From a virus (taxonomy: Duplodnaviria > Caudoviricetes): 64,000 nucleotides of DNA. The position numbers and the translations under genes are program-made. Every line of letters starts with the position of its first letter. Positions within the stretch are counted from its first letter, which is position 1. This document shows positions 36,519 through 50,977 of this stretch, one piece after another. The stretch lies in IMG/VR virus record IMGVR_UViG_3300010429_001449; one strand, given 5' to 3'. A model generated the notes under the pieces. That model saw only the letters and a list, made by a program, of their open reading frames with translations, was not told the DNA's origin and searched no databases.

Positions 36519-36589
36519 AAGCTCCTTTCAAACTGAGAAGTGTTCTGCCTGCTCTTAGTATAACAGCGCGGAAAGATTTGTCAAGACAT

Positions 36590-39750: not shown

Positions 39751-40113
39751 TCATCTCCCTGAACGCACGGCAAAGACTCGAGTGTAGACCGAGTGTGTGC
39801 GAGGGATGTAGTCCTCGTTGCCATAGTAGAAATCGAAGGCCCAGGCCGACGAGTCGTCCCGATGCTCAGCCCACACCCACCAACCAGTTGTCTTGAACGA
39901 CGGGTTAATATGCCGGGTAACAATTCCGGGTTGGTACAAGGTCTTTAACTCCTCACGAGTAGGCATTCGCCAGTTACCGCCCCAAGGGGCGCGAGATTCA
40001 ACCCAGGCAACGGCCTCGTTATAAGTCGTGGTCCTGTTAGGACCTACGAGCCATTCGAGACCCGTCGTCGTATCAAGGATCACTCCGCCTTCTTGCTCTT
40101 GAAATCTACACAC
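39751..40113 (-). CDS. single DUF1566 (Lcl C-terminal, CLec-like) domain protein
   Basis: GGAGG + GTG at 40113; ILDTTTGLEW..WRMPTREEL..AW.FDF..RVFAVR. Confidence 0.85.
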   Translation of the reverse strand: MCRFQEQEGGVILDTTTGLEWLVGPNRTTTYNEAVAWVESRAPWGGNWRMPTREELKTLYQPGIVTRHINPSFKTTGWWVWAEHRDDSSAWAFDFYYGNEDYIPRTHSVYTRVFAVRSGR

Positions 40114-41071
40114 CGTCGCCTCCCTTACGGCGCACGGCGAACACTCGTAGGCAGTCCGAAATCGTGCGACTGCTGTAGTTCTCGCTGCCAAAGAGGAAGT
40201 GGAAAAGCCAGGCCGACGAGGCATCCTTCGGTTCCGTCCAGACCAACCAGCCCGTCGTCTTGAACACCGTGTCCGTGTTCCGGTCTCCCTTGCCCTTCTG
40301 GTACAACTCCTTCAACTGTTCTCGCGTCGGCATCTGCCATCCGCCGCCAGCAACAGTCAGATTCTTTACCCACGATTCGGCGGTAGCGTAGTCCGTTTCT
40401 TCATCCGGACCAACCAACCATTCGAGACCTGTCTGTGTATCAAGGATTACTCCGCATCCTTGCTCTTGAAATCTACCCTTACGGCGCACCGCGAAAACTC
40501 GATCATTTAACCCGTTATCGTGGTAGAGGTCGTACTCCTTGTCACGGTAAAAATCATAGACCCATGCTTTATCCGCACCGTCCGGCTCTGCCCATACGCT
40601 ACGCCCTTGTATGCCAAACAACGGATCAATATTCCACGCAGTTCCTTCCATGTGCAACTTCCTAAGCTGCATCCGCGTCGGCATACACCAGCCGCCACCA
40701 GCAGAAGTCAGACTCTTCACCCACGACACAGCCTTGGGGTAGTCCGTGTCTTCATCAGGCCCAACCAACCATTCAAGACCGGTTTTCTTGTCGGTGATAA
40801 TTCCATCAGCATTCTGTGAAAATCGAGGTTCTGGTTCGGAAGCCGAGACTGCTTTCGCCCGCTCGGCCTTTCTCTTTTTCATCGCCGCCCGAAGAACAGT
40901 CTCGGCCTCTATGCCTCCAATGGACATCTGCCAGAGATGCGAAATCTCCCTCGGATTCCAGCCGTCGGCGACAAGACGATCCCACACGGGCTTGATTGCA
41001 GCATTGAATTCGTCCAAGGCCGCGAGACCTTCATCGCCGTAGGCGTTGTAGTCGTTGTAAAAGGATTTCAT
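40106..41071 (-). CDS. protein with two DUF1566 domains
   Basis: Two copies of D..TGLEWLVGP..GGGW.MPTR.QL..RVFAVR. Confidence 0.9.
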   Translation of the reverse strand: MKSFYNDYNAYGDEGLAALDEFNAAIKPVWDRLVADGWNPREISHLWQMSIGGIEAETVLRAAMKKRKAERAKAVSASEPEPRFSQNADGIITDKKTGLEWLVGPDEDTDYPKAVSWVKSLTSAGGGWCMPTRMQLRKLHMEGTAWNIDPLFGIQGRSVWAEPDGADKAWVYDFYRDKEYDLYHDNGLNDRVFAVRRKGRFQEQGCGVILDTQTGLEWLVGPDEETDYATAESWVKNLTVAGGGWQMPTREQLKELYQKGKGDRNTDTVFKTTGWLVWTEPKDASSAWLFHFLFGSENYSSRTISDCLRVFAVRRKGGDGV

Positions 41072-43048: not shown

Positions 43049-43134
43049 TGGTGGGCACGGGGAGATTTGAACTCCCACCCGGTTTCCCGGACCAGACTCT
43101 CATCCTGGCGCGTATGCCATTTCGCCACGTGCCC
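43049..43134 (-). tRNA. tRNA-Leu(GAG)
   Basis: Loop ATGAGAG; long variable arm. Confidence 0.92.
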
Positions 43135-43138
43135 GTAT

Positions 43139-43223
43139 TGGTGGGCGAGGGGAGAGTTGAACTCCCACGGTCGTAGACCACTGCGTCCTAAGCGCAGCGC
43201 GGCTGCCTTTACGCCACTCGCCC
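43139..43223 (-). tRNA. tRNA-Leu(TAG)
   Basis: Loop CTTAGGA; long variable arm. Confidence 0.95.
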
Positions 43224-43233
43224 AAGAAAAGTC

Positions 43234-43376
43234 GAACGACTGGCCAACGTTTTTCCGCTCTCGCCGACACAGTCCCTTCCTTGCAAGTCAGGACTGCCGG
43301 AATCCTTGCGACCTTTAGGCCCTACGGTGCGTGTCGCTCGCCCGTCCGCTTGCCCAAGATTCACCGCAGCCGTTCT
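43234..43376 (-). ncRNA. candidate structured ncRNA (~143 nt)
   Basis: Starts at the predicted TSS; terminal helix GAACGGCTG/CAGTCGTTC; inner helices CGACAC/GTGTCG and CAGTCC/GGACTG. Confidence 0.45.
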
Positions 43377-43423
43377 AAACCTAGTATAACAGCGATACGT
43401 AAAATGTCAAGACACTTTTTCAA

Positions 43424-43455
43424 GTTTCAACCCACGCGCCCGTACGGGACGTGAC
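43424..43455 (-). CRISPR. solitary 32-nt type I-C-like CRISPR repeat; no array
   Basis: GTCACGTCCCGTACGGGCGCGTGGGTTGAAAC, matching the I-C repeat pattern (GTC..hairpin..TTGAAAC). Confidence 0.75.
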
Positions 43456-43475
43456 ATCCCGCGCCGCCAAACGTG

Positions 43476-44252
43476 TCAAAAAACGCCGCGTACTTGGCAG
43501 TACGGATAGATTTTCTTGAGGTCAGGCAGCCACTCCAATAGAAGGGCGAGGGGCGTCGGCGGCTGCAAGTTCATTGATTCGGTGAGGCAGTCGCCCGGTC
43601 GAAACGGTTGCAAAACCCACGGGGCGGTTGCGCGTATGTCTGCGAGGTAATGAGCAATGTTCTTCAAAGTACGTTTGCTATGAATGCGGTACGGACCGTC
43701 GGGATGATAGATGACTGTGGTACGAAGCTCTACGTCCTTCGCGTGTTCGAGTATCCGCGTCAACGACTTGCGAACGCACTGACTCACTCTGATACTGGAC
43801 GGCGCACCGACAAGCTTGTCGTAGCCGTCCTCCGGCTCGAAGCTCGTTTTGATATCGAGCGCTACGGAGTCTACCAGCTTGTCAGCCACGAGAGCGCCGA
43901 GCAGCCCGGCGTTTACGCCGTTGGTGGCCACGCGGATTTCCTTGCCCAGTTCTCTGAGTTTACGGCAGAACTTGCCGATATCCTGCCGCAGAGTCGGCTC
44001 GCCGCCGGTAATAACGATGCCGTTCGTCCATGTGTTCTTGCTGAGTTCCTCAAAGAGAAGGTCATGCGGAATAGCCTCCTCATTGATTTCGGCGGCAGTC
44101 TTATTCACAAGCTCCGCCGAATGGCAGAACGAACAACGAAGATTGCAGCCTCCGACGAATACGACGCTCGACAACCGCCCTGGCCACTCGCTAAGGTCGG
44201 AAGGGATGCAACCTACCACCGGAAAATGACAGTCTTGTTGTTCGTTGTCCAT
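43476..44252 (-). CDS. nrdG: anaerobic ribonucleotide reductase activating radical SAM protein
   Basis: WPGRLSSVVFVGGCNLRCSFCH, ITGGEPT, TNG, LDIK, ELRTT, LQPFRPG. Confidence 0.88.
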   Translation of the reverse strand: MDNEQQDCHFPVVGCIPSDLSEWPGRLSSVVFVGGCNLRCSFCHSAELVNKTAAEINEEAIPHDLLFEELSKNTWTNGIVITGGEPTLRQDIGKFCRKLRELGKEIRVATNGVNAGLLGALVADKLVDSVALDIKTSFEPEDGYDKLVGAPSSIRVSQCVRKSLTRILEHAKDVELRTTVIYHPDGPYRIHSKRTLKNIAHYLADIRATAPWVLQPFRPGDCLTESMNLQPPTPLALLLEWLPDLKKIYPYCQVRGVF

Positions 44253-45774: not shown

Positions 45775-45834
45775 ACATGACCTACTGTTATTATAACAGA
45801 CACCCCGCCAATGTCAAGGGTTTTTCTTTGAAAG

Positions 45835-47558: not shown

Positions 47559-47616
47559 GCATCTTCCACACACTTAGTATAACAGCGTCGCCAAGATTGT
47601 CAAGCGGTTTTTTGCC

Positions 47617-48165
47617 CTACGAGCAAAAGACAGCGGCGGCGACAACCGTTGTCCAGACTCCTCTTTTATCGCCTTCTGCCGTCTGGCAGATGTTGCGCGT
47701 GCGAACAATCTTGCCGCTCATACGATAGACTTCCTTGCGCTCGTCGTAGTTCTTGGTGGAGTCGAATTCGATACCTAGGGTCGTCGCCAACATCGTAGCA
47801 GCAAGGTCTTCGGCATAATCGCCCGCCTTATCCTCGTTCTCGCCGAAGGAGTGATGTTCGCTCAAGTAGCCGTACTGTTCGCCTTCTGCCGGAACGGCCA
47901 GTCCGATTGCCGAGGCGATCATACGGTGCGGTTCGTTCGTTGCAGTGTCGGCCATCACGCAGAATACAATCTGGCCGGGAGCCATGCCTTTCAAGCCTTC
48001 GGTCGGCGAGACTATCTTGCAGCCTGGCGGAAAGATGCTGGAAACGCGCACAAGATTGAATGCGGCGATGCCAGCCTTGCGCAGCGCCAACTCGAACGAT
48101 TGAAGCTTGTCCTTATGTCGTCCAACGCCCTTCGTAAAGAAGACGCGAGCGGGGATGTGCGTCAT
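47617..48165 (-). CDS. pdaD: pyruvoyl-dependent arginine decarboxylase
   Basis: [25 protein letters not shown] (S-S autocleavage site), [16 protein letters not shown]. Confidence 0.92.
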
Positions 48166-48906: not shown

Positions 48907-48981
48907 TGGCTCCCCAGGGAGGACTCGAACCTCCAACCGTGCCCTTAACAGGGGCCTGTTCTTCCGTTGAACTACCGGGGA
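48907..48981 (-). tRNA. tRNA-Asn(GTT)
   Basis: Loop CTGTTAA; GCCA end. Confidence 0.93.
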
Positions 48982-49400
48982 GTAAAAACCGTTTGCCAAA
49001 CACGAACTACTTCTGTTGCGCCAATCGGAGAGCGACTCATACGCGCCTTACCCATACACTTGCGCGAGCAGAAATTCCTCGTCATGCCGCCGCGCAAGAG
49101 AGTGTTAGCCCACCGGCGGCTGAACTCATGCCCGCACACAGGGCACACCATCTCAACCATTTTGCGTCCGTGCTCCCTGTTGTGCTGCGCCGTATGTGCT
49201 CCGCGCTTCAACAGTTCCAGATTCTCTAGTCTGTTGTCGCGTCGATTGCCGTTCTTGTGGTGAATCGTCTCGTCATCTCCCGGCAGCACTCCGTGGGCAC
49301 GCCAGAAGACTAGATGATGCTCATAGCAGTAACGCCCGCGATATCTTTTGCCGGGATAATCGTCGGGGGCTAGGACGAGTTCGTAGGGACCGTTTCGCAT
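48972..49400 (-). CDS. HNH endonuclease with Zn ribbon; stop codon lies inside tRNA-Asn
   Basis: GGAG RBS; YEHHLV..IHHKNGNRRDNRLENL..H; CPVC..FCSRKC. Confidence 0.9.
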   Translation of the reverse strand: MRNGPYELVLAPDDYPGKRYRGRYCYEHHLVFWRAHGVLPGDDETIHHKNGNRRDNRLENLELLKRGAHTAQHNREHGRKMVEMVCPVCGHEFSRRWANTLLRGGMTRNFCSRKCMGKARMSRSPIGATEVVRVWQTVFTPR

Positions 49401-49410
49401 GACGGACTCC

Positions 49411-49527
49411 GAAAAAACAGGCGCAGACGGTTCAATGCCCCAACAGAAGTTGAAGTTACCGGACCTCGCGGCGTCGGTCGTCTGCGCTTGTTGATCGAAG
49501 GTCAAGATTCTGCTAAGACATTGAACA
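49411..49527 (-). ncRNA. candidate structured RNA or leader upstream of the HNH gene
   Basis: Promoter TTGACT-N16-TACAAT at 49534-49561; two interleaved helices of 19 and 14 bp; ends in a U-tract. Confidence 0.6.
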
Positions 49528-50977
49528 GGAGTCATTGTAGCACAGTTTCACAGAGAGTCAAGCGCCCTACTATTAGGCGACTGGGGAGTAGTAGCTGGCC
49601 GGACATTAAACTGATCGAACGACACCGAAAGGAAAGAACAGAACCTCGCCGCGCCAATTCATCTTGTCGCCCAAGCGACGCCAACGAAAAGACAGCAGGC
49701 TGTTGCTGGCGCTTTTCGTAGTGCCGTTCTTGCGGCGCAGCGTGTTTATCGTCAGAAAGTCGAAGCCGTCCATTCCGGAGGAATCACCGCCAAGCCGGAA
49801 CGAGAACAAGCTGAGTGTTACCGCAACCATCGGCGACCTTCCTTTTCGCTAATGAAGCTTGACTTCCCACAGCGCTTTCGACAACGTTCTCGACAAACGA
49901 GAGAGAATCACTATGACTCTGCGTCCTGGTCTGTCTCCTCCCACGCGGGCGGACCTTCGGACAAACCGCAGTAGGAATTCAGACCTATGACGGAGATGAG
50001 TTGATTCGCCAAACGCAAATCGGCGTCTTCCAAGTTCTTCTTTTCGCGCACGTAATTCGTCAGTGCCCATACGGTGTTCATTTGTCGCCATGTCAATGTG
50101 TGGCGGTAGTACCGAACCACGCATTGCAATACGCAGATCAAATCTCCAAAATTGTCCTCGCGGGAACGCCTTTGCTCCCACAAAACGGTCAGTTCTTCGT
50201 CCAGTTTGCGCCAATTCTCTGGATTGTTCGGCGCGTCTTGTAGCTCGTCCGGTAGCTCAGACATACCTACGCAACCCCGATACGTAAGCCAGTTTGCGCA
50301 CAAAGCCTATCGGCTGCGTTTCCAGAATCCTGCCGTCTATCGATACGCCTCCGCTTTTCAGCAGCGTGACAGAATCAATGCGCATTTCGGTGATTTCATT
50401 CTGCCGCGTCCAGAGGAAACGCCATTTCTCGCGCAGCGTCATGGACTCGACAGAGCGATTCATCTCAGCCAAGACGGTTGACCTCATCGTTGGGTATCGG
50501 TCCGTAAATTCCGCAGGTCTTGAATGCTGTCTCTTTCGAGATGAGCGTGATCGAGAATGGTTGTCCGAAAGATTCAATGTCTGCGTGCCAGCGCATTACG
50601 TGCCCCGTCACAAGGCCGCCGAGATGTTGCTTGTCCAGAACAAGATAATCACTATGATCTATCAAAGGAGACTCGACTGTGAGGCGCGGGAGTTGCATAT
50701 TAATCTACTCGAAGTCGCGCTGATGCGCCTTCAGCGCACGAATAAGGGCGGACAGGAACCGCCGAGCCGTGTTCTTCTGGTACATCAGATGTACCATCTC
50801 GATCAGCGCCTCGGCGGTTGCCTGTCCCGCCCGTTCTGCGCGTCCTTCTTTATTCCGCCTCGTTGTCAAAGAACCCAAGGCGCAGGTGGGAGAAGGCTTG
50901 TGGCCTGTGTCTGCGCTGGCTTCGTCTTGTAGACTCACCTACCACAGTCTCCCATTCGTCTGCGCCTGTTTTCAACT

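Follow-up and report, generated by a model that had tools for sequence, protein, structure and literature searches.

Among the phage-borne elements described so far, the one closest to the locus reported here is RacrIC1, a single type I-C repeat located 11 nt downstream of acrIC5 in a Bifidobacterium pseudocatenulatum prophage and co-transcribed with it (PMC10651486), which restored infection under I-C targeting (Camara-Wilpert et al. 2023, PMC10651486). In the survey tables of the same source, which cover solitary repeat units (SRUs) of viruses, the I-C type is very frequent (PMC10651486). Repeats of this type are built from a 2-nt 5' overhang, a 7-bp stem, a 5-nt loop, and an 11-nt 3' tail, and they are cleaved after nt 21, with recognition centred on U22-G23-G24 and the 3' tail, while the loop and the 5' end are reported not to be critical for Cas5c processing (PMC8524198). 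Cracrs, a related kind of viral element, have pseudo-repeats on their flanks and match a cas or toxin promoter of the host at nine or more PAM-proximal positions (Liu et al., bioRxiv 10.1101/2024.10.29.618823).

The locus considered here belongs to an uncultured jumbo phage represented by a 268,817-bp IMG/VR contig that is 77% complete by estimate, and our analysis centred on bases 129158-193157 of this contig (hereafter the window, 64,000 nucleotides, counted from its first letter). Nearly all window genes, along with 18 tRNA genes, are carried on the minus strand, and the phage is lytic-looking. Three of the four holder runs listed, none of them an RNA run, are anaerobic digester metagenomes, the fourth being a freshwater run with a small share. 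Elsewhere in the window, two neighbouring ORFs with Lcl C-terminal (DUF1566-type) domains (39751-41071, minus strand) have their own family promoter upstream and may encode surface-binding or tail-associated proteins, and an HNH endonuclease gene (48972-49535, minus strand) sits inside the tRNA-rich region. The features on which the argument draws are listed below in the order in which the minus strand is read, followed by the second repeat unit of the phage.

45790..45817, minus strand: nearest upstream consensus promoter on the same strand as SRU1 (promoter scan)
43476..44252, minus strand: gene for a NrdG2-like radical-SAM activase, 258 aa (Pfam, NCBIfam, and homologue names)
43489..43504, minus strand: weak terminator-like hairpin inside the nrdG end, six pairs of which three are G-C, with a T-run that begins 5 nt past the stem
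43456..43475, minus strand: linker of 20 nt from the nrdG stop to SRU1 (sequence)
43424..43455, minus strand: SRU1, solitary 32-nt type I-C CRISPR repeat unit GTCACGTCCCGTACGGGCGCGTGGGTTGAAAC (exact sequence and covariance model)
43435..43453, minus strand: repeat hairpin in the canonical I-C register, nt 3-21 (cmsearch alignment)
43424..43434, minus strand: predicted 11-nt 5' handle UGGGUUGAAAC (after PMC8524198)
43411..43423, minus strand: A-rich 13 nt TTGAAAAAGTGTC between SRU1 and the -35 box (sequence)
43383..43410, minus strand: phage promoter TTGACA-N16-TATACT with TG before the -10 box, driving a leader and two tRNA-Leu genes
43049..43376, minus strand: transcription unit of that promoter, leader plus tRNA-Leu pair (ARAGORN, Rfam)
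43224-43376, minus strand: leader of about 150 nt with no ORF and no Rfam or ARAGORN call, its fold not significant (z = -0.67)
43139-43223, minus strand: tRNA-Leu(tag) (ARAGORN, Rfam)
43049-43134, minus strand: tRNA-Leu(gag) (ARAGORN, Rfam)
Genome 208843-208874 (L054:5844-5875, outside the window), minus strand: SRU2, second solitary I-C repeat TTCGCGCCCCCTGCGGGCGCGTGTGTTGAAAC (covariance model)

An Rfam search at the SRU1 site returned no match even at E values up to 10, and a custom covariance model was therefore built from real arrays. Scanning 185,579 species genomes with a degenerate pattern yielded 48 I-C loci spanning many phyla, with 580 exact pattern matches that fall into 21 distinct variants, and these 21 array repeats were combined with the published I-C structure (PMC8524198) into the model R1. 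Against R1, SRU1 scored 49.5 bits (E 1.2e-11) and SRU2 46.6 bits (E 8.9e-11), compared with 14.5 bits (E 0.36) for the best other match in the 269-kb phage. Given this distance from the background, SRU1 is a real type I-C repeat, and the contig has exactly two such units. As a plain 32-mer, SRU1 has a single occurrence in the window at up to three mismatches, and 0 of 100 shuffles matched. This bears out the preliminary description, made from the letters of the window, of a 32-nt I-C-like repeat lying in sense orientation 20 nt after the nrdG stop (43424-43455). Its accompanying statement that there is no second repeat holds within the window and fails for the genome, in which SRU2 is found 36 kb away from SRU1.

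Both units are solitary. No second repeat was found within 36 kb of SRU1, either at up to 12 mismatches in Hamming scans or by the covariance model, and the same two approaches revealed no degenerate repeat downstream of SRU1 or SRU2. SRU1 hence lacks the two or more repeats at a regular spacing of about 66 nt that make a CRISPR array, and it has the marks of a solitary repeat unit, being phage-borne, in sense orientation, and on a contig with no Cas5d or Cas7 match. Searches for these two families covered the whole 269-kb contig (77% complete) and did match in control genomes, which extends the earlier statement that cas genes are lacking from the window; a Csd1 search had no match in the control genomes either. 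Since short-read assemblers can collapse arrays, a check of the assembly had been advised, and a single repeat might in principle stand for a collapsed multi-repeat array or for a chimeric join with host DNA. We regard such an artefact as extremely improbable: two contigs from other assemblies, one from JGI (sample 3300009838) and one from ENA, reproduce the junction at 100% identity, with unique phage sequence flanking the repeat on either side, and Logan contigs from two digester runs bridge SRU1 without joints or loose ends. The repeat is thus single-copy and not collapsed.

When compared with the published I-C architecture, SRU1 has the exact segment lengths, U22-G23-G24 present, and the UUGAAAC tail intact, and Cas5c cleavage is predicted between 43435 and 43434, after nt 21. 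Its stem of seven pairs around a 5-nt loop is imperfect: the second pair, counted from the cleavage site, is an A x C mismatch (nt 4/20), and nt 7/17 form a U.G wobble. Both irregularities involve letters that are rare at conserved positions of the 580 array repeats, namely A4 (2 of 580) and T7 (10 of 580). In the ViennaRNA minimum-energy fold (-11.2 kcal/mol), the register is shifted by one, a C is bulged, and U22-G24 are paired, a pairing that could hinder Cas5c. Folding energies of the repeat hairpin lie between -11 and -14 kcal/mol, which is ordinary for RNA of this composition (z = -1.1). The three substitutions that affect invariant or almost invariant positions (A4 and T7 in SRU1, and T1 in SRU2) are all confined to the first 7 nt, an arrangement with a chance probability of about 0.011, and this provides modest evidence that the part of the repeat facing Cas5c has been kept; the weakened stem of SRU1 is modest evidence pointing the other way. 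At the 3' end of SRU1, the end letters are repeated directly after the unit (TTGAAAC followed by TTGAAA, 43424-43429/43418-43423), and the end of SRU2 is duplicated in the same manner (GAAAC followed by GAAAC, L054:5839-5848); these recurring letters may be microhomology from the capture of the repeats, or chance.

SRU2 differs from SRU1 at 6 of 32 positions. Its 7-bp stem is perfect, its conserved position 1 is changed from G to T, and U24 replaces G24, as in 1 of the 580 array repeats. Like SRU1, it is intergenic and on the transcribed strand. It lies between ORFs of 76 aa and 72 aa, in the 5' leader of the latter and 22 nt ahead of its ATG, with the Ro60 gene of the phage following closely and a DNA methylase gene 1.2 kb upstream. 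It is preceded by a degenerate family promoter (TTGACA-N17-TAAACC) about 80 nt away and, as at SRU1, by a weak terminator-like hairpin with a T-run. A scan for SRU2-type tails retrieved two chance matches and one terminal array repeat, itself degenerate, and nothing else. There is no known anti-CRISPR gene beside either unit: the neighbours of SRU1 are nrdG, a 191-aa ORF without a family, and tRNAs, and the small ORFs adjoining the units have no homologues elsewhere in the databases searched, those of 76 aa and 72 aa beside SRU2 matching the phage's own copies only, along with one weak, repetitive match. Of 17 viral records encoding a Ro60 protein 34-45% identical to that of this phage, one (G001) has an I-C-like solitary unit, and the genes flanking that unit have no counterpart here, from which we conclude that such units are sporadically acquired rather than inherited with the phage backbone.

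I-C-like repeats, solitary or paired, occur in other viral records too. A distantly related 252-kb phage (IMGVR_UViG_3300037484_000235) carries an I-C-like solitary unit (L072:1481-1515, plus strand) with the tail UGAAUUGAAAC, a 5-bp stem, and a long loop; it follows a stop codon, precedes the next ATG by 3 nt, and has neighbours without a counterpart in the phage studied here. Another record (IMGVR_UViG_3300033057_000089; L002:816-916, plus strand) holds a viral mini-array of two I-C repeats around one 34-nt spacer, the second repeat having a 3-nt loop insertion.

The sequence behind SRU1 had been described beforehand as a copy of a recurrent TTGACA-N16-TATACT promoter, and this proved correct: exact TTGACA-N15-18-TATACT sites number 10 in the window versus 0 in shuffles, and with TATAAT-type variants included the family has about 15 members in the window and about 70 in the genome. 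Most family promoters have an A-rich flank upstream of the -35 box when 50-nt flanks are compared, and the 34 nt after SRU1 are identical to other family promoters at 21-26 of 34 positions, seed mismatches included, a level of similarity that reflects shared promoter architecture. The notion of a pseudo-spacer with a special role, or of a promoter-directed guide, found no support, given a promoter family of about 70 members, no second repeat, and no PAM-flanked target in the I-C loci examined; the stretch is the ordinary promoter of the next operon and has no special meaning. The close apposition of repeat and promoter is best explained by genome compaction. Across 69 promoters (ORFs of at least 80 aa, either strand), the median distance from a stop codon to the next -35 box is 20 nt, compared with 65 nt at SRU1 and 33 nt there once the repeat is subtracted, so that SRU1 looks inserted into a short gap. 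The packing of genes and promoters in this phage is extremely compact. At 12 of the 69 promoters, the upstream stop lies inside the -35 box itself (T-TGA-CA; for example at 36557-36584 and 47576-47603), and a stricter recount found nine real promoters among 12 minus-strand TGA stops inside TTGACA. The nrdG stop, too, is part of a TTGACA, which precedes the real -35 box by 69 nt and was considered as the remnant of a disrupted older promoter; this candidate was rejected because three such orphan boxes among 145 TGA stops are about what chance would give.

On its other side, SRU1 follows the nrdG TGA stop (43476-43478) by exactly 20 nt and lies inside the nrdG 3' untranslated region. The nrdG ORF has Radical_SAM and Fer4_12 Pfam domains, its best NCBIfam match is NrdG2 (TIGR02495; 122.6 bits, slightly below the 131-bit cut-off), its homologues are named by their sources as anaerobic ribonucleotide reductase (RNR) activase, and an NrdD gene is present elsewhere in the phage. 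Copies of this phage aside, no relative exceeding 36% identity was found for the protein. SRU1 shares its strand with all flanking genes, and only the weak terminator-like hairpin stands between nrdG and SRU1; if efficient, this hairpin would lessen read-through into the repeat. No consensus promoter was found within 250 nt upstream of SRU1, the nearest being 2.4 kb away, and read-through from this promoter (45790..45817) would probably supply any transcripts that include SRU1.

As a clue to the host, the repeat had been expected to point to a bacterium with a type I-C system and, through repeat databases, to its identity. The expectation of a type I-C host remains plausible, as I-C arrays occur in 35 of 131 genomes of the class Brocadiia (Planctomycetota), to which the phage gene for a pyruvoyl-dependent arginine decarboxylase points (PvlArgDC, 47617-48165, minus strand). 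With a chromosomal gene of a 'Candidatus Brocadiia bacterium' metagenome-assembled genome the phage gene shares 89% identity, and with the Brocadiia copies, present in 79 of the 131 genomes, 61-75%, mostly 66-75%. Cas5d was present in the one Brocadiia genome checked (Candidatus Brocadia carolinensis, G018); a literature search for I-C CRISPR in Brocadia found nothing. The repeat itself did not name a host: an array with the exact SRU1 repeat was found in none of the 185,579 species genomes, neither the exact repeat nor close variants were found among the JGI metagenome contigs scanned, and the Brocadiia I-C repeats differ from SRU1 at 6-7 positions. The closest array repeat, at 30 of 32 positions, belongs to Comamonadaceae bacterium UBA4962 (L017, L021), which is weak host evidence because the same I-C variants recur, nearly identical, across phyla. 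Finally, 662 spacers from the 48 I-C loci and 146 Brocadiia spacers gave no convincing match to the phage, the best being 26 of 34 without a TTC PAM.

Taken together, these observations make an RNA anti-CRISPR, one of three readings proposed in the preliminary description, the best available explanation of SRU1, although we hold this reading tentatively and with somewhat less than even confidence. The candidate, similar in layout to RacrIC1 (20 nt behind a gene here and 11 nt there), gains support because it is a genuine I-C repeat (49.5 bits, E 1e-11), because it is solitary on a contig without a Cas5d or Cas7 match, and because the phage has two copies, 6 of 32 positions apart, that are both on the sense strand and both intergenic. 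It is further supported by the intact state in SRU1 of the parts read by Cas5c (U22-G23-G24 and the UUGAAAC tail), the confinement of all conserved-position changes to the dispensable first 7 nt (about 0.011), the frequency of I-C arrays in the suggested host class Brocadiia (35 of 131 genomes), and a single-copy junction that is identical across independent assemblies. The reading is weakened by the absence of a promoter within 250 nt upstream and the weak terminator-like hairpin before each copy, by the mismatch and wobble of the SRU1 stem together with the pairing of U22-G24 in its predicted fold and the U24 of SRU2, by the absence of the exact array repeat from the species genomes and the JGI scan (the Brocadiia repeats being 6-7 positions off), by the lack of a known anti-CRISPR gene adjoining SRU1, and by the lack of close relatives of the phage in which conservation of the unit could show.

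Under this model, a type I-C repeat captured by the jumbo phage came to lie in the narrow space that separates the nrdG stop from the following promoter, and sense transcripts of nrdG would carry SRU1 at their 3' end. Cas5c of the host could then bind the hairpin and the UGG...UUGAAAC tail, perhaps cutting after nt 21, for which an RNA 5' end at window position 43434 is predicted, and Cas7 subunits might subsequently load onto the RNA downstream of SRU1. Cascade subunits would in this way be locked in useless complexes, and interference against the phage would be weakened. SRU2, upstream of the Ro60 gene, may have the same role, possibly against another I-C variant, and the promoter behind SRU1 would play no part beyond the next operon. 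The transcription of SRU1, its binding by Cas proteins, and the resulting inhibition are thus what we infer from the features above.

The most serious competitor, which we consider rather unlikely, is that SRU1 is a neutral scar, copied by recombination with a host CRISPR array, devoid of any present function, and slowly decaying; one such route would be recombination between a spacer and its protospacer, which would leave the repeat abutting phage sequence with the PAM replaced. An insertion of this kind fits the widened gap (65 nt against a median of 20, or 33 without the repeat) and the phage-native promoter sequence that begins exactly at the SRU1 3' end, and decay would account for two changes that are rare or absent in the 580 array repeats and that both weaken the canonical stem. 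The lack of a promoter of its own, and the occurrence of such a unit in one of 17 other Ro60-encoding phage records in an unrelated context, also speak for it. What a decaying scar explains less well is the pattern of conservation, as the 3' two-thirds read by Cas5c are unchanged in SRU1 and altered at one position in SRU2, all three conserved-position changes sit in the dispensable 5' 7 nt (p about 0.011), and both copies are in sense orientation, for which the chance is one in four if orientation is random. An origin by recombination is, moreover, compatible with later use as a decoy. That the unit is instead an RNA processing or stability element with no anti-CRISPR role, either stabilizing the nrdG 3' end or providing a Cas5c site that splits the mRNA from the tRNA precursor, seems quite improbable to us. 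SRU1 does lie exactly at the boundary between the mRNA and tRNA operons, SRU2 is in a 5' leader 22 nt before an ATG, and the hairpin is stable (-11 to -14 kcal/mol); against this, a generic hairpin needs neither the single-stranded GUC nor the UGGGUUGAAAC CRISPR flanks, the fold energy is ordinary for the composition (z = -1.1), and about 70 other junctions of the phage do without such a unit.

We likewise judge it improbable that the repeat and the following 34 nt or so form a crRNA-like RNA, whether of the Cracr or crlRNA kind or as a one-spacer mini-array, that steers the host Cascade against a rival phage or onto promoters, be they the phage's own or those of host cas or defence genes. Precedents exist in viral crRNA-like RNAs that repress cas or toxin promoters, I-C included (bioRxiv 10.1101/2024.10.29.618823), and in host crlRNAs that target promoters of defence systems (bioRxiv 10.1101/2024.12.27.630466), and a spacer-length stretch that includes the -35 box does lie between the repeat and the -10 box. 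This stretch is, however, an ordinary member of the phage promoter family that drives tRNAs, with neither a second or degenerate repeat nor a hairpin one spacer-length downstream. Its targets are no more convincing: its own copy is preceded by AAC where the PAM would be TTC, the three family promoters that do carry a suitably placed TTC agree with it at only 22-25 of 34 positions, the best of them being mismatched at seed position 2, and the 48 genomic I-C loci hold no 10-nt seed match (up to one mismatch) with an intact TTC PAM, the sole such match (one mismatch) having TTG in its place. In the particular form of a one-guide RNA that would load the host I-C Cascade and bring it either to host defence promoters or, for a timing switch, to early promoters of the phage itself, the idea appears very improbable; if it were true, the phage would reprogram the host Cascade rather than merely soak it up.

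Should the RNA anti-CRISPR reading prove right and SRU1 be active, RNA anti-CRISPRs of the I-C type would extend to an uncultured jumbo phage of anaerobic digesters, and a single genome would hold two diverged decoys that may cover two I-C variants of its host. The locus also offers a clue to that host, a bacterium with type I-C, possibly of the Brocadiia. No new principle is involved, since solitary I-C repeats are common on phages and one of them has been validated; this kind of element was already described, and the novelty is the second, diverged copy. Virus-borne mini-CRISPR arrays are also reported to exist, and are said to act in virus-virus conflicts with spacers matching rival viruses. 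Like SRU1, these are CRISPR repeats on a virus without cas genes, but they combine at least two repeats with spacers, where SRU1 is one repeat followed by the phage's own promoter. Cracrs share with SRU1 a repeat-like unit on a phage followed by a spacer-length stretch, and I-C Cracrs exist; SRU1 differs in having no pseudo-repeat pair and no target found in the 48 genomic I-C loci. The arrays of UBA4962 (L017, L021) resemble SRU1 at 30 of 32 positions, including the GTAC loop and the GGGTTGAAAC tail, and the A4 variant occurs twice there, whereas SRU1 lies outside any array and has T7 together with A4; their spacers gave no match to the phage. Many viral solitary units closely follow a predicted promoter, whereas SRU1 closely precedes one and lacks a promoter of its own, and SRU1 was not found in the text part of the SRU tables supplementing that survey (PMC10651486). 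SRU1 departs from RacrIC1 in following nrdG rather than an acr gene, in having a mismatch that weakens its stem, and in belonging to a lytic-looking jumbo phage that holds a second, diverged copy. Nonetheless, SRU1 and RacrIC1 are both single, phage-borne, sense-oriented I-C repeats that shortly follow a protein gene with no cas genes nearby, and the action proposed for both is the same, namely competition for Cas subunits.
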